Shown here: positions 1 through 15,743 of the stretch, piece after piece
Numbering within the stretch: position 1 is the stretch's first letter
How the letters are laid out: each line of letters begins with the position of its first letter
Source: Candidatus Latescibacterota bacterium
GTDB lineage: Bacteria > Latescibacterota > UBA2968 > UBA8231
Length of the DNA stretch: 64,000 bases
Direction: 5' to 3'
Assembly: GCA_965217585.1 (NCBI GenBank)
Contig: OZ244561.1
Span: 1,760,001-1,824,000, forward strand
Notes under the pieces: generated by a model
What the model was told of the DNA's origin: nothing
What the model saw: only the letters and a program-made list of their open reading frames with translations
Databases searched by the model: none
Position numbers and translations under genes: made by a program

Positions 1-672
1 TTGATAGCCTTCAATCCCATGTAGGTGTTGGCTGAGCACTGTCGCATGTTCAAACTGCGGGTCAATCTTGCAGGGAAGATTCTGGCTTACAATCCGTTTT
101 AGCTCCTCAGCATCAGTCAACTTGAGGTAGTCGCCTTGAAGTCCAAGAAGCTTGACGATCGTGTAGTGGTCGGTCTCCGGGGCTCCATCTGCCTCGATGC
201 GAAAGCGATCGTCAAGTAACTCTTTGATGTTAATGTCTTCATGTACATGTTCGATGATTTTCGCGAAGTCAATCGCAAGACGGTAGCGCTTCCCATCGCC
301 TTCCTTGGTCGTTTCAATCTCCAACCTGTCACACGCCTGAAACCCGGCCCAAATCCCGATCCCGCGAAATCCAGTCATGTTCCCGTCAAGTTCCGACTTC
401 GGTGATACGGCGATTTTCTTACACGCCTTTATCGCCGCTTCATCCATCCCGATTCCGTTGTCTTGGATCGATATCGTAAAGTTGTCCACAACGCGAACGT
501 TGATTGTTGGGTGCTCTGGCAGCGTGTTTAACTCCTGATAGGAGTCACACGCGTTCTGTACGTACTCCCGGAGCACGCCCTCATGTGTGTACATGCCGCG
601 TGCGAGATTCGCGAGCAAACGGGCACCAATGTCGTCGATGGTGAATTCGTCATCTAGTTGTGTCCAAGGCAT
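1..672 (-). CDS. GHKL (Hsp90/HATPase_c-like) ATPase, 3' end outside window
   Basis: Not in ORF track; translated by hand from ATG at 672: MPWTQLDDEFTIDDIGARLLANLARGMYTHEGVLREYVQNACDS...IQDNGIGM...TGFRGIGIWAG. N-box, G1 and G2 motifs present; frame open to position 1. Confidence 0.85.
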   Translation of the reverse strand, partial: MPWTQLDDEFTIDDIGARLLANLARGMYTHEGVLREYVQNACDSYQELNTLPEHPTINVRVVDNFTISIQDNGIGMDEAAIKACKKIAVSPKSELDGNMTGFRGIGIWAGFQACDRLEIETTKEGDGKRYRLAIDFAKIIEHVHEDINIKELLDDRFRIEADGAPETDHYTIVKLLGLQGDYLKLTDAEELKRIVSQNLPCKIDPQFEHATVLSQHLHGIEGYQ

Positions 673-1116
673 CTGGAACTCTCTCCTTTAGCAAACGCGG
701 CGGCGAAACGCCGTAGCAGGCACAGGGCATGGCGTTAATGACTTTAAGGCGTGCGAGTGGCGTCAATTCCGCTGGATCGCCTTTGCAAAAGGGCGTCAGC
801 ATCACATCAGAACAGCCCAGTTCGTTAAGTCGCTCGCGAAACCACATGAAAATCTCCGCCTGACGGTGAGTAGGCAGTCGAATCTTCTTTATGTGTTCCT
901 TACTTCCCTTGGCTTGACGAGCGAGTTCACTTAGTGATATCGTCTCTTCGGGTGCAATCTCACGGGCAAATGCTTCGGCCGCTTCTGGGTATCGTTTCGC
1001 GATGATGGATGCCGTTGTCGGCGCGAATAGTAGGATGTCCAACGTAAGTCGCCAACTAGCTGTGCCAAGTCGCTCTCGGCTCAATTGAAGTAAGTCGGGA
1101 TACTCTTCGATTTGCA
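650..1116 (-). pseudogene. 5'-truncated paralog of the SPL-like radical SAM gene (C-terminal third only)
   Basis: QIEEYPD...RLTLDIL...CSDVMLTPFCKGDP...MPCACYG aligns closely with the C-terminus of 3848..5245; lacks CxxxCxxC; DNA similarity ends at about 1116. Confidence 0.85.
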
Positions 1117-1327
1117 CTATCTGAACGGCAAGTTACTTCCGTTTCTCGACTACAATCATCGCAAGTACACGTCACTTTCGGTTCACAACTACAACTCCAT
1201 TGAGGGGCTGATGTGGCGATTGAATGCGAAAGTTCGCAATGCCAGCTTCAATCTTGGTGGCGAGGGCAGAGTTGCCCAAGCATTTCGCGAGGTATTCCTC
1301 TATCATGCAGAACTGGTCGCAACGTAG
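1112..1327 (+). pseudogene. Possible 3' remnant of an unknown plus-strand gene
   Basis: 71-codon protein-like frame starting at the point where SPL similarity breaks; no evident RBS; stop converges on the stop at 1333. Confidence 0.3.
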
Positions 1328-1332
1328 CAATG

Positions 1333-2169
1333 TCAGTCGAAGATGTTTGGGACTTCCGGTTCCGGCATCATCGCGAATGCGTGCGGAAACTCGTCAAAGT
1401 GAACGTCATCTAGCTTGCGAGAGCTGCCGTCCTTTCGCTCGACTCGGTAGAGCCATAGTCCCATGGGACTTCGACTGTCACGGTACTTGAATTTTCCAAG
1501 CAATTGTGGACTGGGTATTTCTTTCTGACCGAGTTTACGGAGACTACTCTCTCGTCGGCTGAAGCTAATCGCGACGAGTAGGTCAACGTGGTTTCTCCCG
1601 CGAAATTCCTTGTCGAGTCGAGACGGCTGGAAAAACAGTCGGAACGATCGGTCGTACTTCCCCATAATGTTTTGATTGTGAATCACTCGCGGTGTGAGGC
1701 ACGACGTTACTAACAAAAAATCTCCAATTCGCATGAGCCCAGAGTCCAACAGATACTCCAAGTCATTCGCTTCTTTGTCTTTGAATGTGCCCGTATAGTC
1801 GAGAAAGTAAACAAAGGTGCAGTCTGATCGGATTGCTTCCAGCTTCTCTAGTGCCGAGGGAAACTGAGCGGGGATAATGTCTATTGTGATTGTCTTGACC
1901 TTCGATAGTGTTGTGGCGACAGGGCACTCTTGCGAGCGCTGGGCCAAGTCTGTGTCATGTTCATAAGATATGATTCCTATCTCGTGGTCCCGCACATTGA
2001 AGACGCCGACTAGGTCCATCGCGTCATAAAGATCTTCGCCTCCGAACGTGACGTAAGCGAACTTTTGCGGCAGGCCAAAATCCTTGCGAATTAATCGGAA
2101 ACACTGGTTCAACGCCAATCGCTTCTGGATGCGATATGGCTGTGGCACATCGCCATAGGTTGCTGTCAC
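1333..2169 (-). CDS. Putative class I SAM-dependent methyltransferase-fold protein (Methyltransf_35 / 'O-methyltransferase'-like)
   Basis: PYRIQKR start, YVTFGGEDLYD glycine loop, IISYEHD acidic end of strand 2, FVYFLDYTG motif IV-like segment; directly downstream of a GHKL ATPase gene. Confidence 0.6.
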   Translation of the reverse strand: MTATYGDVPQPYRIQKRLALNQCFRLIRKDFGLPQKFAYVTFGGEDLYDAMDLVGVFNVRDHEIGIISYEHDTDLAQRSQECPVATTLSKVKTITIDIIPAQFPSALEKLEAIRSDCTFVYFLDYTGTFKDKEANDLEYLLDSGLMRIGDFLLVTSCLTPRVIHNQNIMGKYDRSFRLFFQPSRLDKEFRGRNHVDLLVAISFSRRESSLRKLGQKEIPSPQLLGKFKYRDSRSPMGLWLYRVERKDGSSRKLDDVHFDEFPHAFAMMPEPEVPNIFD

Positions 2170-2178
2170 AGAAAGACC

Positions 2179-3855
2179 CTACTTTAAGGATTCGATCTTC
2201 TTGAGGAATTGATCGCGAATGGTGTATGAGAGTTTGCCTATGTCACCATCACATTTGAAGACCTTCAAAGCCTTCTCCAACGTCGGAGCAGGAACGGAGA
2301 GCGCGATTCCCGACAACAAGCAGTCGCGAATCGCGCTCGCCATCTCCTCTTCACAGTTAACTGCAAATCGCTCCAGTAATTCGTCGAACTCGACTGGAGT
2401 AAAAGTCAGCGTCACGACTCGCTCATCATCCTCTTCCGTGACCGCCATCTCTGCCTTGGATTCACTGGGTTCTCTCTTGCGGGCATCACCGTTGGTTTCC
2501 GACGTTTTTTTCGGCCGTGAACCAAACGACCATTTCGGCAATGACGAGGTTCCCGGCTGGCTCACGTTGAGCTTTACTTCCGAGACAGACGCCGCACTCT
2601 CGAGAGGTTTTGCCTCTAGTTCGCTTTGACGAAGACCAGTGTCATTCGCAAACTTGCGTCCGATGTCCGCGTACGCTTTGACGATGGGGCGAAGCGTCTG
2701 CCTCAGCCAAATGCTTACTGGGTGATCATGCATGTACTCACGTTTGTGTGTATCCCATGGGATTGCGAAACTGTGCCCAGTGATGATTAGCTCACCTCGG
2801 AACAAGTCGTGCCCCTTGGTTCCCGTCGCGAGCCCCGACGTACCAAATCCGAATTCCGTCTTAAGGAACTTCTCGATCAGACGACCGTTGCCGTATACAT
2901 CCACGCCCCAATCTGGCTGAAGTCCCTCTTTCTTGCTGGGCAGTTTCCGCGTCAAACCACACTTGAAGCCGAAATCAAGCTTGATGTCATTTCCAGACTG
3001 GAGGAAGTCCTTGAATGTGTGTGAAAACGTATAGACACGCGGGCCAGCGTCCCTTGGGTTGGACCAATCAACATCCATTGCAGGTTCAACCTCAACACCG
3101 TTGACCGTGATGACGATTCGGCGACTCACAATTTCTCCAGCCAGCAGCGGTCGGTAAATGATCCCGACACGTTTGATCAACTCGTCGATCTCATCTTGGG
3201 TTGGCGGTGCAAACAACTTGTAGAAATAGATGTGTGTGTTGCCGGCTCCGATCGGTTTCGCACTCCCGTCCATCGTTTCCCAATTTGGCTTCAATTCCCA
3301 CTTTTCTGGAACCTCGCTTGTGGCGGAAAACGTGGCCGCTGTACATGAAACGATCTTGGCACCATCCGTTAATCGGAAAATACCTTTCTTTGCACCCATC
3401 CCAAACGAACCAATTGTGTTTTTTGAGAAGTCTCGATTTGTTGTCTCACCGGGAATGAACACTTTGTAGACATCGCTCTCGTCCACGCCACCTGCATTGT
3501 CAAAGAATGTTCCCGTAAGCAATTCGAGATCGTAATCAATGTCGATCTTGAGGTTACGCTTGGCTCCTTCAGACCTCCATTTGTCGATCGAGTTGTCGAT
3601 CAATTCAAAGTTGGCTTCATAGAAGGAAAGGTCCCGACGGGCACTGACGACAAGGTCTTTTGGCGGATTGTGTGGGATCGCACGCGGCTCGACGGTCTGC
3701 TGTGGCAAGCTCCCGAAGAACTCACGAACGTGCTGAAAGAAATCCATCGCCTTGTCAAAACGGCCCGCAAGTTCATCGTCGTCCAAGTTCTCTAACAGCG
3801 TCACTTGCTCGTCAGTAGCAAGACGCTCCCAAGCCCGTCTTTCCTTCTTAGCCAT
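2179..3855 (-). CDS. MORC-like GHKL ATPase (HATPase_c plus S5/transducer-like domain)
   Basis: FELIDNSID (N-box), FDNAGG (G1), IGSFGMGAKKG (G2), GNT (G3), then WGVDVYGNGRLI...FRGEL...IPWDTHK. Start placed at ATG 3855, overlapping the upstream stop. Confidence 0.85.
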   Translation of the reverse strand: MAKKERRAWERLATDEQVTLLENLDDDELAGRFDKAMDFFQHVREFFGSLPQQTVEPRAIPHNPPKDLVVSARRDLSFYEANFELIDNSIDKWRSEGAKRNLKIDIDYDLELLTGTFFDNAGGVDESDVYKVFIPGETTNRDFSKNTIGSFGMGAKKGIFRLTDGAKIVSCTAATFSATSEVPEKWELKPNWETMDGSAKPIGAGNTHIYFYKLFAPPTQDEIDELIKRVGIIYRPLLAGEIVSRRIVITVNGVEVEPAMDVDWSNPRDAGPRVYTFSHTFKDFLQSGNDIKLDFGFKCGLTRKLPSKKEGLQPDWGVDVYGNGRLIEKFLKTEFGFGTSGLATGTKGHDLFRGELIITGHSFAIPWDTHKREYMHDHPVSIWLRQTLRPIVKAYADIGRKFANDTGLRQSELEAKPLESAASVSEVKLNVSQPGTSSLPKWSFGSRPKKTSETNGDARKREPSESKAEMAVTEEDDERVVTLTFTPVEFDELLERFAVNCEEEMASAIRDCLLSGIALSVPAPTLEKALKVFKCDGDIGKLSYTIRDQFLKKIESLK

Positions 3856-5245
3856 GATTGGTCCTTTGGGGTGGAGTCGTTCCGTAGCATGCACACGGCA
3901 TTGCACTGATTATTTTGAGTCTTGCCAGCGGCGTAAGTTCGTTCGGGTCACCTTTGCACGGCGTCAGCATAACGTCTGAACAGCCCAATTCGTTTAGTTG
4001 TTCGCGAAACCACATGAAAATCTCAGCTTGACGATCAGCCGGGGGACGGATCTTTTTTACGTGTTTCTTGCTTCCCTTGGCTTGGCGAGCGAGTTCTCGC
4101 AGCGACGTGGTTCCGTCAGGTGCAATCTCACGTGCGAATACCTCAGCCGCCTCCGGGTATCGCGTCGCGATGATGGACGCCGTTGTTGGCGTGAATCGGA
4201 GGATGTCGAGTGTCAATCGCCAACCAGTTGTTCCGAGTCGGTCGCGGCACAAGCGGAGAAAATCAGGATACTCTTCAATCTGCTGCCAAACGGCTGTCAT
4301 GCGAATGACCGGATCGATAGCTCCGGCTTCCACTGCCCATGCGAGACTTTCGAGCAATTCTTCGGCGGGCGACCCGTTAGGAGCCACCCAGCGGCGAACT
4401 GACTCCGGCATGAGCGAAATCCCCACTTGAACCTTGCCGTTGAATCTCAGGTACTGCGGATATCGAATCTTGGTGAGGAAGAACGGTGTGACTTCGGCTT
4501 CGTTGCAGGCGTCGATGACGAACTGAATCATTGAGCCGTTTCCATCCTCGTCAGAAAACCATTCGTCGTACTCAACGAGACCGCTGGTTTCGCCAAAGTT
4601 GATTGGGTATTCGTACTGAAACCACTTCTGCCGTAGCTCAGCAGCTAGGTCTTCCCAGTTCAGAGCCACGTCCATGCCGTCCGTGTATGGCATGTTGAGG
4701 TAGCAGTACGGGCATTCCACCGGACAAAAGCCGACGGCGACCGATGCCTTCATGAATCCTTTCGTGATCGTCCCGTCCTTGTTCCGTACCATCGGACGAG
4801 TCCATTCGCCACACGTCGTTCCTTGCCCGCCAAGAAACGGGCTGACGAATTTCGCCTTTCCCGTGCCACCGCGATTCGTGAGATACAGGCTCTGCCTCTT
4901 CGCGGTAAATGGGTCCGCGTCCACAATGAACTCGTTTCTGAATAACTCAACCGCATTTCCGACCGTTTGATTGTGTCCGCCTTGTCGTTTGACGATGAAT
5001 CGTGCGAGGCCCGCAGCCGGCCCAGCTTGAAACCGTTCCGCAGCATCAGCTTCGTCATCATCGTGGACGGCGAGCATCACCAGAGGCGGATCGATACCCC
5101 ACTGTTTGCGAGTCTGAAGTACACGCAGGACACGGGAAGCCTGTGACTTGTTGCAGAGCAGCGGACCAGCGACCGTGATCAAGCGAATCCGATTGAGGTT
5201 CTCACGGACGATTTTCCGCGTTTGATCAGAGGCTACTGTTTCCAT
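3848..5245 (-). CDS. Spore photoproduct lyase (SPL)-like radical SAM protein
   Basis: GFCPVECPYCYL (CxxxCxYC), FGETS, FFLTK, ISLMPE...SPAEELLESL...AG resemble SPL-family motifs; extra C-terminal cysteines (CSD, PCKG, PCAC). Confidence 0.8.
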   Translation of the reverse strand: METVASDQTRKIVRENLNRIRLITVAGPLLCNKSQASRVLRVLQTRKQWGIDPPLVMLAVHDDDEADAAERFQAGPAAGLARFIVKRQGGHNQTVGNAVELFRNEFIVDADPFTAKRQSLYLTNRGGTGKAKFVSPFLGGQGTTCGEWTRPMVRNKDGTITKGFMKASVAVGFCPVECPYCYLNMPYTDGMDVALNWEDLAAELRQKWFQYEYPINFGETSGLVEYDEWFSDEDGNGSMIQFVIDACNEAEVTPFFLTKIRYPQYLRFNGKVQVGISLMPESVRRWVAPNGSPAEELLESLAWAVEAGAIDPVIRMTAVWQQIEEYPDFLRLCRDRLGTTGWRLTLDILRFTPTTASIIATRYPEAAEVFAREIAPDGTTSLRELARQAKGSKKHVKKIRPPADRQAEIFMWFREQLNELGCSDVMLTPCKGDPNELTPLARLKIISAMPCACYGTTPPQRTNHG

Positions 5246-6603
5246 CGCTTCGCCCTTTCCTCAAAACTCTCGACGCGGGTGACGCGGCCGATATTCTCCG
5301 TGACAACATAAGCCCAGCCACGAGGCAATTTCGTCACGACCTCGTAGATGTCGCTGAACGAGTGAGCATTGCGAATCTTCCGGTGTAGTTGCCGCGAGAC
5401 GCTGCTGTTGTCGTCCCCGACCTGAAACACGAGCTTCGTCGCCGTGTTTGCGAACGCAACAGAACTGAAGTCGTCAGGCTGTTGCGACGCAAGAACCACG
5501 CCGACCCCAAACTTTCGGCCTTCGCGAAGCAGCTTCTCGGCCGGTGACCCATTATCGAAAGACAACTTGTGGGCTTCATCCATCACTACAAAGCACCGAA
5601 GCGGTCCCGGACCGAGCGATTCGACATACCCGATGAAGTTCCACAACAGGAACTCAGTCACGGCTTTCTCAAGCGAGTATTCTAGCCCTTTCAGCTTCAC
5701 CACAAATACTCTTCCGTCTGAACGCAGCATATCGCCCCACTGCATGTCCTGTCCGTTTGAACGGAACGTATTGAACACAAACACGGTCGAGATGTGTGAC
5801 GCAACATTCGCAGCGAGTCGCCGATTCGGATGCCCCGGATCATCGGCATAACTTTCAAGCTGATGCTGAAGGTTGAGGAAAGGCGGAGCTTCTTGTCGTT
5901 CCTCGGCATCAGACCCCGGCAGCACATCAAGGACCGCTTGCCGAAGCATCGCGTGCTGTTGGATGCCGATACCTGAATAGATCCGCTTGAACGTGTCTGC
6001 GACTCGTTGGGCGACGCTCACCGGCCCATGTAAGTCAAACGGGTATCCTTGAAGTGGGTTGATGTTGACGCCGTTACGTCCTGCGTCCAGCTCCTCCGGC
6101 TCGCCAAACTGCAGGAACTCTTGTGGTGAATTGTCGAGCGAGAATCCCTGAGAGTAATCGAAAACGATCGATGGAATCCTGCGTTGTGCCAACTCTGTCA
6201 GCAGGCAGGAGACCGCATAGGTCTTACCAAAGCCGCTTTCACCCAGAACGAGCACGTGGGGATTCGCTGACCCACTTGCTGGATCAGGATTCCAGTACAC
6301 CGGCTCTTCGCTTTCCGCGTCAGCCCCAATCAGCACGGGATCGAACGAGGCGTCCGCGCCGTCCAAGTTGCGAGTTTCCTTGAGGATCGCGTCGACTCGT
6401 TCGCGGCTCTGGCGGATCGGTTCTTCGTTGCTGGCACGCGAGGATAGCTCATAAGTACCTATTGTGACGTGAGCGTTGATCGCGGACACCTGAGCCGGCG
6501 TTACGCCGACTCGTGCCGCGATCGTCTTGCGGTCATGGCCCTGCGATAGGAGGTCCAGAACCTCTTCTCGTTGAGACTTACTTATCCTCTTCGCCATTCC
6601 CAT
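5233..6603 (-). CDS. HerA/FtsK-superfamily ATPase (DUF87/DptH-like) with N-terminal HTH
   Basis: NPHVLVLGESGFGKT (Walker A), IVFDY, VVMDEAH (Walker B), LLREGRKFGVGVVLASQ; N-terminal EVLDLLSQGHDRKTIAARVGVTPAQVS is HTH-like. Confidence 0.85.
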   Translation of the reverse strand: MGMAKRISKSQREEVLDLLSQGHDRKTIAARVGVTPAQVSAINAHVTIGTYELSSRASNEEPIRQSRERVDAILKETRNLDGADASFDPVLIGADAESEEPVYWNPDPASGSANPHVLVLGESGFGKTYAVSCLLTELAQRRIPSIVFDYSQGFSLDNSPQEFLQFGEPEELDAGRNGVNINPLQGYPFDLHGPVSVAQRVADTFKRIYSGIGIQQHAMLRQAVLDVLPGSDAEERQEAPPFLNLQHQLESYADDPGHPNRRLAANVASHISTVFVFNTFRSNGQDMQWGDMLRSDGRVFVVKLKGLEYSLEKAVTEFLLWNFIGYVESLGPGPLRCFVVMDEAHKLSFDNGSPAEKLLREGRKFGVGVVLASQQPDDFSSVAFANTATKLVFQVGDDNSSVSRQLHRKIRNAHSFSDIYEVVTKLPRGWAYVVTENIGRVTRVESFEERAKRWKQ

Positions 6604-6967
6604 TCGTTTTCAGCTCCTCAGTCTTCTCCTGGATCAGAGCATTGATTATGGCGGTCCTATCTTGAATCACGCCTGCTGCTTCCAATCGTCGGAAATCATC
6701 CCATAGCTCGCGGTCGATCCGCAGCGTGACCGACACACGATCGCAGTGGCAAGAACCCTTCGGCCGCCCGACCCGGCGATCAGGCATGCTCTCCCACGCC
6801 TTTCGAGCAGCGAGGCTCAGATTGGTAAAATCGTCTGGCGTGGTTTCAAACGTATTGCCGGCAACCTCAGTAAGAATCGTCCGTTTCGTAACTCGGACGA
6901 CGACTCCACGTTCATTCGCGTGGGGAGGGATCTTTAAGCGTACCTTGTCCCCGACTTGAGTCTGCAT
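6578..6967 (-). CDS. Small putative regulator: KOW-like N-terminus plus BrnA-like ribbon-helix-helix
   Basis: QVGDKVRLK...GVVVRV (KOW-like); RRVGRPKG...VSVTLRIDRELWDDFR...IINALI (BrnA/CopG-type RHH). ATG at 6967 preferred to TTG at 7003. Confidence 0.6.
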   Translation of the reverse strand: MQTQVGDKVRLKIPPHANERGVVVRVTKRTILTEVAGNTFETTPDDFTNLSLAARKAWESMPDRRVGRPKGSCHCDRVSVTLRIDRELWDDFRRLEAAGVIQDRTAIINALIQEKTEELKTNGNGEEDK

Positions 6968-6997
6968 GATTGACTGGCTATCGCATGATCTAATAAA

Positions 6998-7037
6998 TTG
7001 CAATAATTAAATTACAACTTGCAACCGGGGTCGTCAA
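6998..7037 (-). promoter_or_regulatory. Putative sigma70 promoter of the island operon with overlapping palindromic operator
   Basis: Minus strand TTGACG (7037-7032), 17 bp, TAATTT (7014-7009); imperfect palindrome TTGCAAT-N6-ATTACAA at 6998-7017. Confidence 0.45.
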
Positions 7038-7077
7038 GGGGTAGTCAAGTAAGGAGTTGGCGATAGGGGAACACGAC

Positions 7078-7129
7078 ATGAGCTACAAGCCGAAGACACT
7101 CTTTCGACCGACTGATCGAAGACATCAAT
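7078..7129 (+). pseudogene. Frameshifted N-terminal relic, possibly of a DUF262/GmrSD-type gene
   Basis: Removing a 4-bp duplication (cgac) gives MSYKPKTLFRLIEDIN, which I recall as similar to DUF262 N-termini; GGGGA RBS-like site upstream. Confidence 0.3.
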
Positions 7130-7309
7130 GGTACCGCTCACGGCGCAGAGAGCGAATCGCGGAGGAGGTCAGGCGGCGAACTCGAACTGTAGCTGAGGTG
7201 GGGCACCACCAGCAGCCCTACGCGAATCAGCGAAACGGGGTACAACTGGCAACCTCTCAGGCCGGTTCATAAACACACCGACCAGCCCCCAATACCCAAC
7301 CCCCGCTTC

Positions 7310-8047
7310 TCAATGCTTACACGCCACATGTCGATCTTCGTATATTCCCTTTAGAAACTTTTCTGGATTGAGTTCTTCGGGCAAATAATGCCATGCCGTA
7401 CTATAGCGCGTGCGATTGCTGTGGTTATCATAAGCACCGTGCAGGAGATTGGCGGAAAACAGAACAACCGTGCCAGCGGGAATGACCAGATCCACAGCCC
7501 GCGATTCATCGACCTCTGTCCAACTGCCATGCCTGCTTGGATTTCTGCGGTGCTCGACAATCTCACCCATCCGGTGGCTGCCGGGCACCACCCGCAAACA
7601 CCCATTCTCCACATCTGAATCTTCCAGATAAATTCCGCAACTGATAATGCGATCCGTATCAGTCCCAAAATAAAAACTGTCCTGATGCCAGCCCGTTGAC
7701 GTGCCGCCGTTGGGCAACTTTGGAAAAAACTTGGTGCCAAACACATCAAAATTTTCACCAATCAATACTGCTACGCGGTCTAAAATCGCCGTTTCACGCG
7801 CCAGTTCCAACACGCGGGCATCGACCACGCAAATACCCTGAATTTTGTGCAACAAACCCGCCCGGGGTTCACCGCACTCGTCCAACTCGAGCGTCCAGTG
7901 CGGCACCTGCTCGGTCAGCTTGCGCCCCTCTGCGACTAGTTCATCAAACACCTGCTTGTAATAGGCCAATCGCTCGCCTTGTATCAGGGCTTCAAAAACA
8001 AGATAGCCATCTTCTCGAAACTGCCGCACCTGTTCGTCTGTCAACAT
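7310..8047 (-). CDS. Phytanoyl-CoA dioxygenase (PhyH) family protein
   Basis: FREDGYLV, WHQD, ENGCLRVVPGSH, LLHG...N...RTR. Confidence 0.92.
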   Translation of the reverse strand: MLTDEQVRQFREDGYLVFEALIQGERLAYYKQVFDELVAEGRKLTEQVPHWTLELDECGEPRAGLLHKIQGICVVDARVLELARETAILDRVAVLIGENFDVFGTKFFPKLPNGGTSTGWHQDSFYFGTDTDRIISCGIYLEDSDVENGCLRVVPGSHRMGEIVEHRRNPSRHGSWTEVDESRAVDLVIPAGTVVLFSANLLHGAYDNHSNRTRYSTAWHYLPEELNPEKFLKGIYEDRHVACKH

Positions 8048-8322
8048 TCTTGTTCCTCCTCAAGGTATAGGAAAAATAAGGCACCGCTATCGGTACTATG
8101 CAATTCGCTGAAAACGTACGCAAGGGTCCAGCAGGGTCCCTGATGAATCGCTTGTCGTCGCACAGAATCGTTCGGGGAATGCTCAAAGCACCGTTGTAAA
8201 GGATTTCGGCGCGTTTCAGGGGTCAACCTGGTACTTCCGACCCGTCCCCGGTAGCAGCGCTACTGCGGAGGGTGGACGCCCGAACGTGCGCCATTTCCCG
8301 AGCCAGATTCCCTTGCCTATGA

Positions 8323-10548
<2,226 letters not shown>

Positions 10549-10593
10549 TCTCAGCAGGGTGCTCGGTAACGGTGGGCTCCGATGCATCTGAGG

Positions 10594-10644
10594 GCCGCCT
10601 TGCGACTCCGTCGATGATGCCCGCCGACGGAGTCGCAAGGCGGC
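10594..10644. terminator. Perfect 20-bp inverted repeat downstream of katG
   Basis: gccgccttgcgactccgtcg (10594-10613), 11-nt loop, cgacggagtcgcaaggcggc (10625-10644); no U-tract. Confidence 0.55.
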
Positions 10645-10718
10645 AACCCAAGGCAAAACAACCGGATACGACGCAAAATTCTTTGGCGGCCCCAAGGTCG
10701 CGCTCTTCGAGTCCCACT

Positions 10719-11807
10719 ATGGCCCATCGTCTCCGCATCCTCTTCCTCGCCCGCCGCTACCCGCCCACCATCGGCGGTATCCAGACCCACTGTCACGCGC
10801 TCTATACCCGACTGGCCAACCAAGCCCAAGTCCGCCTCATCGCGCTGGGCCGCCAGTCGCTTCTGCACCTAATTTGGTTCCTCCCCTATTGCTTTGTGGT
10901 CGCCTTTTGGGCCGTGCTCGGCCGCCGCGTCGATGCCGTGTACTTTGCCGACGGGGTCGCCGCGTCGTTGGCTCCACTCCTGCGCCCTTTGGGTCCGGCG
11001 CGATTTGTCACCACCGTCTATGGCCTCGAAATGACCTACAAAAATCCCCTCGCGCGCGCGCTAATGCACTGGGGAGTCCGCGCCTGCGACAAGGTCGTCG
11101 TCATCAGCGAACACAGCCGCCGCATTACCGCTGCCAGCGGCGTCCCCGAGGCTAAGTTGGAAATCATCTATCTAGGGGTTGAACCCCTGGAGTTGGGACC
11201 AGACGAGTTGGAGGCGGTCAGAACGCGTTTTGAGCAGGAACACGGCCTGCGCTTTGGCCAAGACCGCATCCTACTGCTTTTCGGCCGCCAGGTTCCCCGC
11301 AAGGGCATGGTCGAATTTTTGGCAAAGGGGATGCCCCTGCTCGACGCGGATATTCGCCTCTTGATCTGCGGTCCTCCTGCAAGCGAAACCGCGCGCTTGC
11401 AGGAGTGCTGTCAATCGGGCCTAAAGGACCGCGTCGTCCTGCTCGGGCCAGTCCCCGACGATGTGCTGGCCATGCTGCGCACCAGTTGCGATCTTTTCCT
11501 CATGCCCAACCTCCACATCCCCGGCGATGTCGAAGGTTTCGGCCAGACCCAGCTCGAATGTATGTACGCTGGCACCCCGGCCGTGGCCTTTGCCGTCGAT
11601 GCCCTGACCGAGAGCGTGCGCGAAGGCGGCTTTCTCGTCGCCCCGGAAGATTACCCGGCCTTCGTCGCGCAGATCCATCGCTTCCTCGTCCTCGGCCCGG
11701 CGGAGCGCGCCGATCTAGGCCGCCATTGCCGAGCCTACGTGCGACGAGAATACGCTCAGGAAAGAATCGCCGCCCAATACATGGATCTCTTTACTGGAAA
11801 GGCCTAA
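10719..11807 (+). CDS. Glycosyltransferase family 4 (GT-B)
   Basis: RILFLARRYPPTIGGIQ, GRQVPRKG, DVEGFGQTQLE; start moved to ATG 10719. Confidence 0.9.
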   Translation: MAHRLRILFLARRYPPTIGGIQTHCHALYTRLANQAQVRLIALGRQSLLHLIWFLPYCFVVAFWAVLGRRVDAVYFADGVAASLAPLLRPLGPARFVTTVYGLEMTYKNPLARALMHWGVRACDKVVVISEHSRRITAASGVPEAKLEIIYLGVEPLELGPDELEAVRTRFEQEHGLRFGQDRILLLFGRQVPRKGMVEFLAKGMPLLDADIRLLICGPPASETARLQECCQSGLKDRVVLLGPVPDDVLAMLRTSCDLFLMPNLHIPGDVEGFGQTQLECMYAGTPAVAFAVDALTESVREGGFLVAPEDYPAFVAQIHRFLVLGPAERADLGRHCRAYVRREYAQERIAAQYMDLFTGKA

Positions 11808-11811
11808 CGCC

Positions 11812-12861
11812 GTGCACTTTACCGAACTCGACACCCCCGCCCTCTGCGTCGATCTCGACGTGTTAGAAAAAAACATCCGCGACTTGCAAAACGCCTGCGA
11901 CCAGCTCGAAATTGGCCTGCGCGTCCACACCAAGACCCACAAGACGCCGGCCATTGCGCGTATGCAAGTCGCCGCAGGGGCCATTGGCATCGTCAGCCAG
12001 AAGCTGGGCGAGGCCGAGGCCATGGCCGACGGGGGCATCCAAGACATCCTGATTCCCTACAACATCGTCGGCCAGCCCAAGCTAGCCCGCCTGACGCGCC
12101 TGATCCAAAGCGGCAAGAGCACCCTGACGCTCGCTGCCGACTCCGCGGTCACCGTTGATGGGCTGTCGCAGGCGGCCACGGCTGCTGGTTGCCGCATCCG
12201 CGTAATCGTCGAGATGGACAGCGGCAGCGGCCGCGTCGGCACCCAATCGCCCGCCGCCACCCTCGCGCTGGCCCAACACATCGACCAGCTCCCGGGGCTG
12301 GATTTTACCGGCGTTATGACCTATCCCAGCAGCGAGCGGGCGCGCCCTTTCCTCGACGAAGTGCGCGACCTAACGCACAACAGCGGCCTGCCGCTGCACA
12401 TCATCAGCGGTGGGGGCACCGGCAGCGAAACCATCTCCAAATCCCTCGGCTGCACCGAGACCCGCATCGGCTCGTACGCCTATGAGGGCATGACCCGCGT
12501 GGGCAAGCGCGAAGACCTCGACCCCACTCGCTGCCCATTGCGCTTGGTCGTCACCGTGGTCAGTACCTCCCGCCCGGGGCAAGCCATCGTCGATGCCGGT
12601 CAGAAGGCCTTCACCAGCTACCCGCCGACTCCTTATGGCTACTGCATCGAGCATCCCGAACTTTTCATCAAAGGCATGTCCGTCGAGCACGGCCACGTCG
12701 ATACCACCGCCGCAAATCGTCCCCCTAACGTCGGCGATATACTCTCTTTCATTCCCCTGCACGGCGGGATGACCACCAACCTCCACGACCGCCTCTTCGC
12801 CCTCCGCAACGGCGAGGTCGTCGAAGAATGGGCAGTCGCCGGCCGCGGCCGCGCCCAGTAG
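11812..12861 (+). CDS. PLP-dependent alanine-racemase-fold enzyme (D-threonine aldolase/DSD1 family)
   Basis: LDTPALCVD, RVHTKTHK, SGGGT, DAGQKA, SVEHGH. Confidence 0.88.
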   Translation: MHFTELDTPALCVDLDVLEKNIRDLQNACDQLEIGLRVHTKTHKTPAIARMQVAAGAIGIVSQKLGEAEAMADGGIQDILIPYNIVGQPKLARLTRLIQSGKSTLTLAADSAVTVDGLSQAATAAGCRIRVIVEMDSGSGRVGTQSPAATLALAQHIDQLPGLDFTGVMTYPSSERARPFLDEVRDLTHNSGLPLHIISGGGTGSETISKSLGCTETRIGSYAYEGMTRVGKREDLDPTRCPLRLVVTVVSTSRPGQAIVDAGQKAFTSYPPTPYGYCIEHPELFIKGMSVEHGHVDTTAANRPPNVGDILSFIPLHGGMTTNLHDRLFALRNGEVVEEWAVAGRGRAQ

Positions 12862-12934: not shown

Positions 12935-13807
12935 ATGGAAATCCAACCCCAACCACAGATATTCGACGTCGATGAGCAAAACTTTGAAGAGCTGGTCCTT
13001 CAAGGCTCGCAGGAGCGCGTCATCGTCGTCGATTTTTGGGCCCCTTGGTGCGGCCCTTGCAAAACCCTAGGCCCCATCCTCGAAGACGTCGTCGCGGCGC
13101 TTGGCCCCGGCGTGGCTCTAGCCAAGATCAACGTCGATGAAAACCAGCAGCTCGCCACGGCCTTTCGGGTCCAAGGCATTCCCGCGGTCAAAATTGTCAA
13201 GGACGGCCAGCTAGCCCAGGAATTCACCGGCGCTCTGCCGAGGGAGCAGATCGAGGCCATTCTCCGCCCCTTGGTCTTCGATGCGCCCATCCCCGAAGCC
13301 CAAGTGGTTGACCAGGCCGACGACTTAGCGGCCATCGGCGACTTCGACGCGGCCGCGCGCCAGTACGAGAACATGCTTGAGGAAAATCCTACCGACGGCC
13401 CCGCCCTCCTCGGCCTAGCGAAGATCCACCTAGAGCAGGGCCGTTTCGAGACCGTGCAAGAGCTGGTCAATCTAGTCGAGGAAGACACCCCCGAACACCC
13501 GCAGGCCCAGGCGCTGCTCACCCAGATCGAGTTTGCCCACCAATGCCAGCAGGCCGGGGGGCGCGCTGCCTGCGCCCAGCGGATGCTCAGTCAGCCAGAC
13601 GACCAAGAGGCCCGCTACCTATTGGCCTGTTGCGCAGCCTTTGAGGGCGACTACGAAACCGCGTTGCAGGAATGGCTACAGGTCGTGGGGAAAAAACCGC
13701 ACGGCGACCAAGCCAAGGACGCCATGGTCGCCGTTTTCCATCTACTCGGCCGCGACAATCCGCTGGTGGCCGACTATCAGCGCAAGCTCTATCAAACCCT
13801 GTACTGA
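12935..13807 (+). CDS. cnoX: Thioredoxin-TPR chaperedoxin (YbbN/CnoX family)
   Basis: VDFWAPWCGPCK thioredoxin domain, TPR repeats, C-terminal YQRKLYQTLY. Confidence 0.88.
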   Translation: MEIQPQPQIFDVDEQNFEELVLQGSQERVIVVDFWAPWCGPCKTLGPILEDVVAALGPGVALAKINVDENQQLATAFRVQGIPAVKIVKDGQLAQEFTGALPREQIEAILRPLVFDAPIPEAQVVDQADDLAAIGDFDAAARQYENMLEENPTDGPALLGLAKIHLEQGRFETVQELVNLVEEDTPEHPQAQALLTQIEFAHQCQQAGGRAACAQRMLSQPDDQEARYLLACCAAFEGDYETALQEWLQVVGKKPHGDQAKDAMVAVFHLLGRDNPLVADYQRKLYQTLY

Positions 13808-13814
13808 GGACGCC

Positions 13815-14870
13815 ATGCAAATTACCCGCCTCGAACGCACCGTCTGTTGCGTGCCCTTCCTCCCGGGCATCCTGCCCCCGCCCGAGTACGACGAGCCTGC
13901 GCCGGGCTATCCCGAACCGCTCTCGGCGCGGCGTCAAGACGTCCTCAGGATCCACACCGACCAAGGACTAACCGGCCTCGGCATGAGCGGACCGTACTAC
14001 GGCGACCACGCAGAGCAACCGCCCGACCTGATCGGCAAAGACCCCAACACCTTTGAGCCACGCACTTTGCGCGGCGGTAGCTGGAACATTGCCCTCCTCG
14101 ACCTGATCGGCAAAACGATCGGCTGGCCGCTGTGCCGCATTTTCGGCGGCAGGCTACAAGACAAGGTACTGGTTGACTACTGGATCAGTCGGATGAGCAC
14201 CACGGATACCGCCCGCGCGGCCCAACGCGCCGCCGAGCTGGGTTTCCACGGCATCAAAATGAAGTGCAAGTGGGAAGATGCCAATATGGAGGACCGGGTC
14301 CGCGCCAGCCTCGAAGTTGCGCCGCACTTGCGGATGGTCCTAGACTTCAACGAGCGCCTCTACAATCTCAACAACGCGCTCGACCTAGCCCGCCGTCTCG
14401 ACGGACTCGACGTGGTCCTCGAAGATCCCCTCCCCAAAACCGATCTCAACGAATATCGCCGCCTTAAGGGAGAGACCAGCGTCCTCGTCGCCCCGCACTT
14501 CCAGAACCCCCGTCAGATCATCGACGCAGTGCATCTTGAAGCGGTTGACGCCTTCAACGTCGCCCCCTCGGATTGGGATTTTCTCGACATGGCGCGCATC
14601 GCCGCAAGCGGGGACATTCCCGTGTGGCAAGCCTCCAATGTCGATCTGGGGATTTTCGACGCCTTCCGCCTCCACGCCTCGGCCGCCGCGCCCAACTGCA
14701 CCTTTGGCTCCGACCTCTGCGGCAACTTCGTCCACGAGCACAGCCTGCTCAAAGAGCCGCTGGTCCAAGACGGCTACGCCATCGTGCCCACCGGCCCGGG
14801 TTTGGGCGTGGAATTGGACGAGGACGCCGTCGCCCGCTATGCCATCTCCGCGCAGCAGTGGCCCGGCTAG
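13815..14870 (+). CDS. Mandelate racemase/muconate lactonizing enzyme (enolase superfamily)
   Basis: GFHGIKMK, DFNE, LEDP, VPTGPGLGVELDE; ATG 13815 with GAGGA RBS. Confidence 0.88.
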   Translation: MQITRLERTVCCVPFLPGILPPPEYDEPAPGYPEPLSARRQDVLRIHTDQGLTGLGMSGPYYGDHAEQPPDLIGKDPNTFEPRTLRGGSWNIALLDLIGKTIGWPLCRIFGGRLQDKVLVDYWISRMSTTDTARAAQRAAELGFHGIKMKCKWEDANMEDRVRASLEVAPHLRMVLDFNERLYNLNNALDLARRLDGLDVVLEDPLPKTDLNEYRRLKGETSVLVAPHFQNPRQIIDAVHLEAVDAFNVAPSDWDFLDMARIAASGDIPVWQASNVDLGIFDAFRLHASAAAPNCTFGSDLCGNFVHEHSLLKEPLVQDGYAIVPTGPGLGVELDEDAVARYAISAQQWPG

Positions 14871-15637
14871 GCCGGGACCAGCGCCTGTGCGCCAAAGATC
14901 ATCGGATAGCCTGCGCCCGTGTGCACGGAACGCGCGGCCCCGTCCATATAGGCGATGCTAAAGGCGCGGCGCGACTGACCCGTCGGGTTGATTCCCGAGC
15001 GGTGCAGCAGCAGGTTGTTGAGCAAAATCGCCTCGCCGGCCTCGGCTTCGAGGTCGATTTCCGCTCCCGGCGGCGCGCATTCGGCTAGCTGCTCTGCCGA
15101 AGGAAAGTGCCTTTCAGTGATCACCCCGCGCTTGTGGCTGCCGGGCACGATCTGCATACAGCCGTTTGCGACCATCGCCGGGTCGATCGCGGTCCACACC
15201 GTGATCGTCGGATTGTAACCTACGCCCCAACCCACGCCCACATCCTGGTGCCAAGGCAATATCGTGCCCTTTTCCGCCGGCTTGTTCATAAACATCGCCC
15301 GGAAGATCGACACGTCCTCGCCGATATAGCGCCGGGTAATCTGGCGGAAAAGAGGGTGCTGCATGTAGGCGAGATAGACGGGGTCCTGCTCCAAACCCAT
15401 GATCTTGCGGTACTGGAGCGTGGCCCCCTTGTGGCCGGGAGAGACGGTGGGCATCTTCGCGTAGTCGGCGTCCTCCCCGTCGAGTTGAAACTCCATCTCC
15501 GGGTAGGGGATCTCGCCGAGCATGATCTCGTCGATGCGCTGCCGTAATTCCGCCAGTTCCGCCTCGTCGAGTACTTTGCCGAGCCGCGCGTACCCGTGCT
15601 CCTCAAAGTGGGCGTGGTGTTCGTCGCTGTATTTCAT
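14867..15637 (-). CDS. PhyH family dioxygenase
   Basis: FEEHGY, LPWHQD, NGCMQIVPGSH, LLHRS...RRA. Confidence 0.92.
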   Translation of the reverse strand: MKYSDEHHAHFEEHGYARLGKVLDEAELAELRQRIDEIMLGEIPYPEMEFQLDGEDADYAKMPTVSPGHKGATLQYRKIMGLEQDPVYLAYMQHPLFRQITRRYIGEDVSIFRAMFMNKPAEKGTILPWHQDVGVGWGVGYNPTITVWTAIDPAMVANGCMQIVPGSHKRGVITERHFPSAEQLAECAPPGAEIDLEAEAGEAILLNNLLLHRSGINPTGQSRRAFSIAYMDGAARSVHTGAGYPMIFGAQALVPA

Positions 15638-15743
15638 TAGCTACTCCCTTCGTTTCCCTAGAAATCAGCAATGTTCTCCCCTGTGTCAAATTTTCCTACC
15701 TTTCTACCCGCTCGTCCGCTCCGTTCCAAACGAGGAATCCACC

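Follow-up and report, generated by a model that had tools for sequence, protein, structure and literature searches.

MORC-type GHKL ATPases and HerA/FtsK translocases recur in restriction-modification and anti-phage loci, SPL-family radical SAM enzymes act on DNA bases, and pairs of a radical SAM enzyme and a methyltransferase-fold protein are known, as in the case of DUF5131 with TcmP. SPL and the SPL-like phage M6 gp53 are DNA-acting radical SAM enzymes (PMC8989533). The locus described here brings candidates for each of these components together in the genome of a Candidatus Latescibacterota bacterium (GCA_965217585.1, contig OZ244561.1, positions 1,760,001 to 1,824,000; this 64,000-nt stretch is hereafter the window). 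A sequence-only reading of its left end had proposed an undescribed operon, with a SAM-dependent base-modifying pair working with two ATP motors, and had noted no named system (Dnd/Ssp, Dpd, BREX, DISARM, Nezha, Sir2-HerA) of this composition. No named system in PADLOC-DB v2 has this composition and none was found in our literature searches, in which one preprint mentioned a PAACC + HSP90 + radical-SAM triad that could not be compared. The families are rare, with 60-70 proteins each among 5.8 billion.

Results

The observation of five abutting minus-strand genes followed by a second GHKL gene is confirmed, and the unit proves to be larger than had been reported. Open reading frames on the minus strand were found at 6578-7003, 5233-6603, 3848-5245, 2179-3906, 1333-2169 and 1-672, the last being open at the window edge. 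The junctions described in the sequence-only reading hold, namely the 6603/6578 and 5245/5233 overlaps, the ATG at 3855 against the stop at 3848, and the 9-nt gap at 2170-2178. Homologues place the real starts at ATG 6967 for the regulator and at ATG 3855 for GHKL1. The features of the window are as follows.

6991-7037 (-), candidate promoter and operator of the operon, with a -35-like hexamer (7037-7032), a 17-nt spacer, a -10-like hexamer (7014-7009) and an AT-rich block with partial dyad symmetry around TTGCAA (7015-6991)
6578-6967 (-), small regulator of 129 aa from ATG 6967 (the ORF is open from TTG 7003), with an N-terminal beta-rich domain and a C-terminal RHH-like segment
5233-6603 (-), HTH + HerA/FtsK-type P-loop ATPase of 456 aa, with Walker A and B present
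3848-5245 (-), radical SAM enzyme of 465 aa, with a predicted photoproduct-lyase-like core, an extra N-terminal alpha/beta domain (about residues 20-125) and a Cys-rich C-terminus
2179-3855 (-), GHKL1, a MORC/MutL-type ATPase of 558 aa from ATG 3855
1333-2169 (-), MTl1, a 278-aa partner of GHKL1 with a predicted class I methyltransferase fold
1106-1275 (+), scar, a 170-bp fragment of the 3' end of a B12-type radical SAM gene
650-1117 (-), scar, a 155-aa ORF that copies the C-terminal third of the radical SAM, its 3' end keeping the ancestral overlap with the GHKL2 start
1-672 (-), GHKL2, first 224 of 534 aa, the gene continuing left of the window
7004-7278 (no strand), right end of the inserted island, the junction with the resident PhyH gene lying at about 7278/7279

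The domain assignments of the sequence-only reading hold, although several only weakly. The HerA protein matched DUF87 (2e-7), TrwB (8e-7) and HTH_7 (6e-4) and, among the PADLOC models, DndH (3.2e-42, profile positions 1335-1650 of 1715, in the DndH C-terminus) and mad8 (2.3e-16), and its best solved relative is the DptH C-terminal domain (7es4, 5.7e-9). The radical SAM protein reached only E=0.023 in Pfam and only E=0.02-0.03 in HMM searches, and the SPL family model was missed by a wide margin (13.6 against 437.55 bits), but the CxxxCxxC motif (C174, C178, C181) and C145, C247, C430, C451 and C453 are invariant in 16 of 16 aligned relatives. Its AF2 model (pLDDT 87.7) gave SPL as Foldseek's top hits (4fhc, E=1.4e-9, TM 0.72 on the target). 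GHKL1 matched HATPase_c_3 at 1.7e-5 (25.3 bits against a cut-off of 25), its Bergerat motifs and a PWDTHKR block are invariant in 27 aligned relatives, its family counts 68 proteins, and its C-terminal half returned no named neighbours. The AF2 model of MTl1 (pLDDT 87.2) gave Trm1 as top hit in Foldseek (3axs, 1.7e-7), followed by O-methyltransferases; G43, G44, E70 and D124 are invariant, Methyltransf_35 scored 7e-4, below cut-off, and the TcmP model was not met. GHKL2 matched HATPase_c_3 at 7e-13, while its best NCBIfam hits, HSP90/HtpG-type models, were far below cut-off. For the small regulator, Pfam gave only BrnA_antitoxin at E=0.047; its homologues start at the residue matching M13 and precede the HerA gene in seven of the compared loci (numbered with L or G), namely L005, L006, L014, L015, L017, L021 and L022. 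The candidate promoter was not called by a simple sigma-70 scan, but its AT-rich block is conserved upstream of the regulator gene in 8 of 8 loci whose flanks are otherwise unalignable, TTGAC being kept in 4 of 8.

The stretch at 650-1330, which the sequence-only reading had missed, is not spacer but a recombination scar holding fragments of both radical SAM genes. The 155-aa ORF at 650-1117 is 81% identical to residues 322-460 of the 465-aa radical SAM, and 1106-1275 is 79% identical to L004:15992-16161 (L004 being the sequence that includes the region left of the window), the end of the intact B12-type gene that lies 2 kb left of the window. L005 carries the same B12-gene fragment, whereas in L006 the full radical SAM gene directly precedes GHKL2. 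The same arrangement, scar included, stands on a 14,185-nt contig of a run from another study, with 239 differences over window 1-7130, and it is therefore not an assembly artefact.

The unit continues 6.9 kb beyond the left edge and comprises ten genes in a 15.46-kb insertion, not five or six: the RHH-like regulator, the HTH-HerA/FtsK, the photoproduct-lyase-fold radical SAM, two pairs of a GHKL and a 280-aa partner, and a convergent GHKL3, inactive B12-like paralog and B12-type radical SAM. The full GHKL2 gene lies at L004:17068-18672. The sequence-only reading, which saw no nuclease, had suggested that an effector may lie beyond the left edge; there we found no recognisable nuclease effector, but a second, putatively methyltransferase-like partner (X283), the B12-type radical SAM with its inactive, Cys-less paralog, the third GHKL and an IS605-type TnpB. 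The B12-binding domain hit is below cut-off (20.5 against 32.1 bits). All three GHKLs keep the Bergerat motifs. GC is 0.48-0.58 over window 1-8500, against 0.60-0.67 (about 0.62) further right and in the left flank. In the sister genomes G136 and G146 the FAD-oxidoreductase gene (L004:8487-9824) is joined directly to PhyH, lying about 13 bp from the sequence that starts at window 7279, so that the insertion is absent from the same site. MTl1 is found in 2 of 168 genomes of the phylum and in 1 of 30 other genomes of the genus.

Conservation of gene order had been set beforehand as a test, and the order recurs in other genomes and metagenomes at 42-95% identity. L022, an unrelated metagenome contig, has all ten genes in the same order at 42-71% protein identity, and L006, another MAG, has eight, lacking one cassette. 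HerA lies directly upstream of the radical SAM in 12 of 26 loci, a further 6 of the 26 having under 400 bp of upstream sequence and being uninformative, and a GHKL gene lies directly downstream in 12 of 26. A GHKL is followed by a 250-286-aa partner in 5 of 5 loci that reach far enough (G000, L005, L006, L021 and L022). However, eight loci with at least 2.9 kb upstream lack HerA; six of these have radical SAMs 47-64% identical, and L011 (71%, frameshifted) and L013 (77%, partial) also lack it. The radical SAM family is therefore not tied to this system. The GHKL + partner cassette is likewise a swappable module that also occurs on many contigs without this radical SAM: GHKL1 and MTl1 coincide on contigs matched by size in 19 cases, but with the radical SAM list only 4 and 3 times. 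L005 keeps 94-96% identity in head genes but only 24-30% in GHKL1/MTl1, and in L021 the place of the B12 arm is taken by an N6_N4 DNA methylase (9e-56). Decayed copies are present in L024 and L030. A complex prediction for GHKL1 and MTl1 gave weak support, with a score of 0.48 against a best control of 0.01; the mark was reached by 58 of 80 solved complexes and 2 of 110 mismatched pairs, but at 0.60 or under by only 7 of those 80 and by both mismatches, while the runs agree in at least 68% of contacts and the partner's pLDDT is at least 80.

Discussion

The interpretation offered by the sequence-only reading is partly supported. The domain assignments, the co-conserved unit and the lack of a named counterpart hold, and the DUF5131/TcmP analogy gains a direct link, since a 49%-identical relative of the radical SAM sits next to a bona fide TcmP (TIGR04474, 8.5e-43); homology among MTl1, X283 and TcmP is, however, not significant by hhalign (E=0.09-0.5). 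The base-modifying pair with two motors, and a role in defence, remain inference.

We propose that the window carries the right half of a rare, horizontally acquired, mobile and modular ten-gene island that acts on DNA, most likely a modification-based conflict (defence) system, a reading that we consider about as likely as not. The analysis itself establishes the low-GC insertion absent from relatives, the co-conservation of gene order across distant lineages, a fixed head (RHH-like regulator, HTH-HerA/FtsK ATPase and SPL-fold radical SAM), one or two exchangeable cassettes, each a GHKL ATPase plus a protein of about 250-285 aa, of which one partner has a class I SAM-methyltransferase fold in its predicted structure, and usually a convergent arm of GHKL3, B12-like paralog and B12-type radical SAM. 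The remainder, including function itself, is inferred from sequence and predicted structure alone. It can be hypothesised that the small regulator represses the operon at the conserved AT-rich operator, that each GHKL ATPase acts as an ATP-driven DNA clamp placing its SAM-using partner on DNA, and that the methyltransferase-fold proteins and the two radical SAM enzymes write an unusual mark on host DNA, or check for one. The DndH/MAD8-like HerA/FtsK hexamer would then translocate along DNA that lacks the mark and block or destroy it, with an unrecognised nuclease domain (possibly in a GHKL C-terminus) or by radical damage from the SPL-like enzyme, and cassette exchange would change specificity.

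This hypothesis is consistent with the DNA-directed affinities of HerA and the radical SAM, the methyltransferase fold predicted for MTl1, the patchy spread, the conserved operator block, the cassette divergence and scar, and conflict-type neighbours, namely GmrSD_N/HEC-05 in L014 and two TCAD9 proteins in L024, as well as a RepB primase beside L022. Nevertheless, no nuclease or other effector was recognised in any of the ten proteins, and apart from HerA no protein matched a PADLOC model better than E=1e-6, with the exception of GHKL3 against a type II REase model (4e-11), a match that covers the ATPase domain only. Known defence or conflict genes flank only 2 of the roughly 8 loci with usable flanks, and in the window's own genome the neighbours are metabolic (PhyH, FAD oxidoreductase, KatG).

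The modules are separable, and the island may be two or three adjoining systems. In this view, which we regard as unlikely, the head with a cassette, a separate GHKL3 / B12-like / B12 radical SAM module and extra GHKL + methyltransferase-fold pairs, each working alone, would merely share an integration spot. The convergent arms need separate promoters, L021 has the head and one cassette without the B12 arm, and the locus is a variable hotspot in the genus; yet head and B12 arm occur together in G000, L006 and L022, and as remnants in L024, despite 42-90% divergence and different flanks, and the B12-gene fragment inside the cassette junction of L005 and the window shows that the two radical SAM genes faced each other in the donor as well. 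It is slightly less likely that the island serves the mobile element carrying it, as a DNA-modification, anti-restriction, transfer or maintenance module that protects or moves the element's own DNA and does not defend the cell. HerA/FtsK ATPases with HTH domains also act in DNA transfer, and NCBIfam gave weak hits to CedB/CedD, VirB4 and TraB; L022 lies next to the RepB primase and a gene read by eye as TrbL-like, the TnpB gene lies inside the inserted segment, and X283-like clusters include many phage members. However, the conserved ten-gene unit contains no conjugation or replication genes, no relative of the radical SAM or of MTl1 was found in IMG/VR viral contigs or in 72,556 plasmid records, and TnpB is absent from L006 and L022.

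A DNA-damage repair or tolerance module, in which an SPL-like enzyme would reverse a photoproduct-type or crosslink lesion with the help of MutL/MORC-like ATPases and a HerA motor, the methyltransferase-fold proteins being accessory, appears doubtful. The closest structure is the repair enzyme SPL, JGI names some family members 'DNA repair photolyase', the GHKLs hit MutL/PMS1 models weakly, and HerA acts in archaeal break repair according to NCBIfam names. Repair does not explain, however, the fast-diverging, exchangeable cassettes, a tightly conserved repressor-type operator, presence in 1 of 30 other genomes of the genus, pseudogenised copies or the DndH/mad8 affinity of the motor, and the SPL family model is missed as noted above. 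The least likely alternative is a biosynthetic cluster for a small molecule, cofactor or modified peptide using two radical SAM enzymes and methyltransferases. Three GHKL ATPases, an HTH-HerA/FtsK of the DndH clade and an SPL-fold enzyme point to DNA instead, and no precursor peptide, transporter, peptidase or carrier protein was found in the unit. MTl1's structural neighbours do include small-molecule O-methyltransferases, and the best NCBIfam hits of the B12-type enzyme are natural-product enzymes, with PhpK P-methyltransferase at 1.5e-13, HpnJ and AprD4 (6fd2, 7e-8), all of them far below family cut-offs (50 against 600 bits).

Gene organisation of the window's left end

The minus strand of window 1-7003 carries the following open reading frames:
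6578-7003 (-), small regulator, with ATG 6967 as the likely start, as in its homologues
5233-6603 (-), HTH-HerA/FtsK-type ATPase, 456 aa
3848-5245 (-), predicted radical SAM enzyme, 465 aa
2179-3906 (-), GHKL1, with ATG 3855 as the likely start, giving 558 aa
1333-2169 (-), MTl1, 278 aa, with a predicted methyltransferase fold
650-1117 (-), 155-aa ORF, part of a recombination scar
1-672 (-), GHKL2, the first 224 aa of a 534-aa protein

The observation made in the sequence-only reading, a run of co-oriented genes that overlap or nearly abut, is confirmed and enlarged, and the gene junctions that it reported are exact. Its interpretation as an undescribed DNA-modification or defence operon is supported only in part. 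The GC content is 0.48-0.58 here, against 0.60-0.67 beyond window 8500 and in the far left flank. No tRNA gene was detected by scanning window 1-12000 and L004, a stretch of the same genome reaching to the left of the window, so that there is no tRNA integration site, and no Rfam family was found in either stretch at the gathering threshold.

Predicted properties of the encoded proteins

The 456-aa protein has a weak N-terminal HTH match (HTH_7, 6e-4) and a HerA/FtsK P-loop domain (DUF87, 2e-7). Its strongest matches anywhere are the C-terminal motor of DndH (PADLOC model PDLC02684, 3.2e-42, profile positions 1335-1650 of 1715), mad8 of MADS (PDLC04140, 2.3e-16, profile positions 6-287 of 314) and the solved DptH domain 7es4 (5.7e-9). 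The 465-aa protein barely registers as a radical SAM enzyme by HMM (E=0.02-0.03). Even so, its CxxxCxxC motif (C174, C178, C181) is invariant in 16 of 16 aligned relatives, as are five further cysteines, and an AF2 model (pLDDT 87.7) retrieves spore photoproduct lyase (SPL) entries as its six best PDB hits (E=1.4e-9 to 7.6e-9, TM 0.71-0.73 on the target), the next hit being at 7.8e-5. About 125 extra N-terminal residues form an alpha/beta domain in this model.

GHKL1 passes the HATPase_c_3 cut-off by a hair (25.3 against 25 bits), whereas GHKL2 scores 47-49 bits and GHKL3, encoded left of the window, 57.4 bits. The N-box and G-boxes of the Bergerat fold could be read in the sequences, and in GHKL1 the Bergerat motifs are invariant across 27 relatives. 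With respect to an S5-fold transducer domain with a sensor lysine, what was observed, from alignment alone, is an invariant PWDTHKR block about 170 residues after the ATPase domain, in a C-terminal half that matched only unnamed clusters in an atlas look-up. MTl1 is modelled with a pLDDT of 87.2 as a class I SAM methyltransferase and not with a cyclase fold, the top structural hit being the tRNA methyltransferase Trm1, followed by O-methyltransferases. We infer that the conserved G43/G44, E70 and D124 sit where SAM-binding and catalytic motifs lie in that fold. Comparison with PHROGs gave nothing informative beyond generic ATPase and GHKL hits.

A single complex prediction gave weak support for an association between GHKL1 and MTl1. 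The score was 0.48 against a best control of 0.01; the mark was reached by 58 of 80 solved complexes and by 2 of 110 mismatched pairs, but at 0.60 or under it was reached by only 7 of the 80 and by both mismatches. The runs agree in at least 68% of contacts and the pLDDT of the partner is at least 80. This is consistent with the co-varying cassette described below but proves nothing.

A recombination scar between MTl1 and GHKL2

The 155-aa ORF at 650-1117 is 81% identical to residues 322-460 of the 465-aa enzyme. Just upstream of it, on the other strand, window 1106-1275 is 79% identical to the 3' end of a B12-type radical SAM gene that lies 2 kb left of the window. This scar was missed in the sequence-only reading. 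It means that a segment consisting of the 3' part of the radical SAM gene, GHKL1, MTl1 and the tail of a facing B12 gene was recombined in front of an older junction between the radical SAM gene and GHKL2, a junction that is the intact state in L006, a related locus with an eight-gene form of the island. The identities of the 155-aa fragment (81-83% to L006 and to L005, a further related locus) do not decide whether it is the resident or the incoming copy. The same arrangement is present in L005, and also on a 14,185-nt contig from a sequencing run of a different study, with 239 differences over 7,130 bases.

Genes beyond the left edge of the window

To the left of the window (G000:C1:1760001-1824000, G000 being the genome under study) lie the rest of GHKL2 and X283, a 283-aa protein with no Pfam hit and a weak PP_RS20740 match, which groups by language-model features with PP_RS20740 and Methyltransf_35 clusters. 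On the other strand, facing inward, are GHKL3 (700 aa, HATPase_c_3, 2e-15), a 451-aa protein and a 537-aa B12-binding-like radical SAM enzyme. In the latter, compared with class B (cobalamin-dependent) radical SAM methyltransferases, the radical SAM core is well supported (PF04055, 3e-17, 63.7 bits) and the CxxxCxxC motif is present, while the N-terminal B12-binding domain gave only a weak match (PF02310, 4.4e-4, 20.5 bits against a cut-off of 32.1) and all subfamily models score far below cut-off. The 451-aa protein (L004:13318-14673, +) is a 23%-identical paralogue of the 537-aa enzyme that has lost the CxxxCxxC motif but is conserved at 46-88% identity in L006 and in two further loci, L022 and L024; it is presumably a non-catalytic subunit.

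An IS605-type TnpB gene follows (L004:9860-10816; Cas12f1-like_TNB, 6e-23; OrfB_IS605, 1.5e-12), without a TnpA next to it. No nuclease domain other than TnpB was found. TnpB was considered as the missing nuclease, but was rejected since it is an IS605-type gene that is absent from the related islands L006 and L022. It is probably a passenger or the vehicle of the local insertion.

The island is an insertion

In the sister genomes G136 and G146, the FAD-oxidoreductase gene (L004:8487-9824) is about 13 bp from the sequence that begins at window 7279, the PhyH gene. G000 therefore carries 15.46 kb extra (L004:9820 to window 7278). MTl1 is found in 2 of 168 genomes of the phylum and in 1 of 30 other genomes of the genus, the one other carrier being probably the genome of L005.

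Conservation of the unit in other genomes and metagenomes

The radical SAM family is small and isolated. It comprises 70 proteins at E<=0.001 among 8,000 scored candidates of a 5.8-billion-protein collection, all at least 46% identical, and 79 cluster representatives at E<=0.001 among 1.84 billion; 9 loci were found in 185,579 species genomes and 17 in metagenomes. Across these 26 loci, HerA lies directly upstream in 12, six more have under 400 bp of upstream sequence and cannot tell, and eight with at least 2.9 kb upstream lack it. Six of those eight are the divergent branch (47-64% identity), the other two being L011 (frameshifted) and L013 (partial). A GHKL gene of type 1, 2 or 3 lies directly downstream in 12 of the 26. 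L022, a 34-kb contig next to a RepB primase gene, has all ten genes in the same order at 42-71% identity. L021 has the head, one GHKL and a 283-aa partner, followed by a convergent standard N6_N4 DNA methylase (L021:6281-7195, -; PF01555, 9e-56) where other variants have the arm of GHKL3 and the B12-type radical SAM, which hints that the role of this arm may be DNA methylation. L024 and L030 are decayed copies, in which the HerA and radical SAM genes are broken into several frames and GHKL3 is fragmented.

Every GHKL that can be followed is succeeded by a protein of 250-286 aa, in 5 of 5 loci (G000, L005, L006, L021 and L022). Between G000 and L005 the head genes are 94-96% identical, but GHKL1 and MTl1 are only 30% and 24% identical, which is cassette replacement inside a conserved frame. 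The GHKL1 family (68 proteins) and the MTl1 family (60 proteins) share 19 values of longest-contig size with each other, but only 4 and 3 with the radical SAM list; this is a rough proxy, yet it indicates that the pair also lives in other contexts. No significant similarity was found by BLASTP between MTl1 and X283 or between GHKL1 and GHKL2.

A conserved putative promoter and operator

Upstream of the regulator gene, a block at window 7015-6991 is conserved in 8 of 8 loci whose surrounding DNA no longer aligns. A TTGAC-type hexamer lies 16-17 nt before a TAATT-type hexamer in 4 of the 8. We read this as the promoter with an overlapping putative operator for the RHH-like protein, a proposal that rests on conservation, since a sigma-70 consensus scan found no minus-strand promoter upstream of the regulator.

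Relation to TcmP

In the divergent branch of the radical SAM family, locus L012 encodes a true TcmP (TIGR04474, 8.5e-43) convergent with a radical SAM gene whose product is 49% identical to the one described here. TcmP is common in this phylum, with 42 of 168 genomes scoring over the cut-off, and in many it is fused behind an N-terminal domain with a three-Cys motif, giving proteins of about 560 aa, while elsewhere the two are adjacent genes. The three-Cys protein may correspond to DUF5131/Gp37Gp68. The design of an Fe-S/three-Cys enzyme with a methyltransferase-like partner is shared with the island, in which the partners follow radical SAM and GHKL genes in the five loci named above, but here a GHKL gene is inserted between the radical SAM and its partner, and membership of the TcmP family is not shown. 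Neither MTl1 nor X283 gave a hit to the TcmP model at E<=0.1, and G000 has no match genome-wide. Comparisons of the MTl1, X283 and TcmP profiles by hhalign were not significant (E=0.087, 0.51 and 0.18), although the motif order lines up, and a single-sequence comparison gave 0.0038 at 8.8% probability; homology is not claimed. Sequence-only searches of the PDB with profiles of MTl1 and X283 returned no match up to E=10.

Comparison with described systems

Literature searches found no paper describing radical SAM, GHKL and HerA together, and no system in PADLOC-DB v2.0.0 is matched by its defining set of proteins, since only HerA-type models match and the GHKL domains match weakly (TmtA, MzaB, REase_II). 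The motor relates the island to the DndFGH/DptFGH restriction module and to the HerA-FtsK capture systems (PMC10853773), in which such motors are captured by many mobile conflict systems. However, the 456-aa protein consists only of HTH and ATPase domains, without the TRD, inactive-DAM or REase domains of DndH, and no DndF or DndG hits were found among the 12 island ORFs scanned, scar ORF 650-1117 and the window's part of GHKL2 included. None of the capture systems described in that work (D5 helicase, Orc/Cdc6-REase, eukaryotic elements) contains radical SAM or GHKL genes. With MADS (mad1-mad8), in which MAD7/MAD8 form an ATPase-nuclease module (PMC13662399), the island shares a mad8-like ATPase matching nearly the full profile, a large multi-gene operon, a methylation theme and a regulator. 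No mad model other than mad8 is hit by any island protein; MADS uses m6A methylation and OLD/Toprim-type nucleases, and as far as could be established no radical SAM or GHKL enzymes are listed for it.

In prokaryotic MORC/paraMORC restriction-modification operons (PMC2292703), GHKL ATPases of the HATPase_c_3 type are likewise encoded next to SAM-dependent methyltransferase-type genes on mobile islands, but the partners here are non-canonical proteins with a predicted methyltransferase fold and radical SAM enzymes, and not standard DNA methylases with REases or helicases. The predicted fold and the CxxxCxxC cluster of the 465-aa protein are those of SPL and of phage M6 gp53, the SPL-like radical SAM isomerase of thymidine hypermodification, both of which act on DNA (PMC8989533). 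The protein is nevertheless only 15% identical, has the extra N-terminal domain and a Cys-rich C-terminus, and misses the SPL family model (TIGR03886/SplB) with 13.6 bits against a cut-off of 437.55, while a profile search against the PDB sequences of SPL gave E=0.5. No 5-hmdU kinase, aGPT-Pplase or PLP genes are nearby. Ophion (OpnABC; bioRxiv 10.1101/2025.09.30.679545) is a validated defence system that depends on a radical SAM enzyme, but its partners are entirely different (a PHP phosphatase and a phosphoribosyltransferase), and it has no GHKL, HerA or methyltransferase-fold genes. A preprint (bioRxiv 10.64898/2026.10.19.760177) mentions in one line a three-gene conflict-system neighbourhood of PAACC (cNMP-cyclase-like), HSP90 and radical SAM, that is, a radical SAM enzyme, an Hsp90-type GHKL ATPase and a fast-evolving third enzyme. 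This resembles, and may overlap with, the order radical SAM, GHKL2 and X283 found in L006; HerA, the regulator and the B12 arm are not mentioned in it.

Genomic context provides suggestive, not strong, evidence for a role in defence. Flanking genes include GmrSD_N/HEC-05 in locus L014, and two TCAD9-domain proteins and histidine-kinase-type ATPases in L024. No relatives of the radical SAM or MTl1 families were found in IMG/VR viral contigs, in scans that used two peptide patterns for each family and can miss distant relatives, or by tblastn against the plasmid records of PLSDB.

Interpretation and significance

The analysis establishes a real, conserved, mobile and apparently undescribed unit built from DNA-directed parts. 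Its function in DNA marking and policing, the catalytic activities of its enzymes, the binding of the RHH-like protein to the operator, the identity of the effector and whether it represents one system or adjoining modules are inferred. It can be hypothesised, at the speculative end and with little likelihood on present evidence, that it represents a new class of modification-restriction immunity in which radical chemistry writes the self mark. In this view, an SPL-fold radical SAM and a cobalamin-type radical SAM methylase, each delivered by a MORC/Hsp90-like GHKL clamp together with Trm1-like methyltransferase-fold partners, would install on host DNA a carbon-centred (or backbone) modification that ordinary methylases cannot make. 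A DndH-type HerA/FtsK translocase would enforce it against unmarked DNA, and swapping the GHKL and partner cassette would reprogram specificity.

According to the work on thymidine hypermodification (PMC8989533), SPL had until then been the only radical SAM enzyme linked to DNA, and with that work SPL and M6 gp53 were the only ones known to act on it. Here, a cellular, mobile, multi-gene island pairs a predicted SPL-fold enzyme and a B12-type radical SAM with three MORC/Hsp90-like ATPases and a DndH-like motor. If it acts on DNA, it would extend radical chemistry to host DNA marking or policing. It would also give a function to the widespread but uncharacterised design of a Cys-motif enzyme with a TcmP-like methyltransferase-fold partner, and would provide prokaryotic MORC-type ATPases with a defined client. 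The exchangeable cassettes, the conserved putative operator and the clean empty-site comparison make the system experimentally tractable, and even if it proves to be two adjoining systems, each module is undescribed.

Repeated elements and variable regions around the insertion site

The short stretch at window 7131-7290, between the putative promoter of the operon and PhyH, shows a summed contig depth of about 244-298 in three of four sequencing runs, against 2-25 for the island (0 where one run, X6, has no cover); these runs were compared as contigs only, and no RNA run was found. Island contigs end in this stretch. Only one copy was found in G000 at E<=0.001, and its 22-nt core occurs once in the window. 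It may be a community-wide REP-like element. In G146, the variable region next to PhyH carries Metal_CEHH (2e-55) and a Prok-E2_C and ThiF fusion (5e-22, 7e-10) at positions 13640-16234 of G146:C1:172001-191000. This is a ubiquitin-like conjugation conflict module, so that the locus collects accessory cassettes. Finally, a 214-bp element without an Rfam match, with 87% identical copies at window 8143-8355 and L004:11089-11302 and a partial copy at L004:1963-2016, contains a GC-rich hairpin and lies just upstream of plus-strand genes, namely katG, GHKL3 and a 527-aa ORF. G000 has only these three copies, whereas in sister genomes several copies punctuate a variable region of 1.4-14 kb between PhyH and katG, so that the element marks an insertion hotspot or a shared leader.
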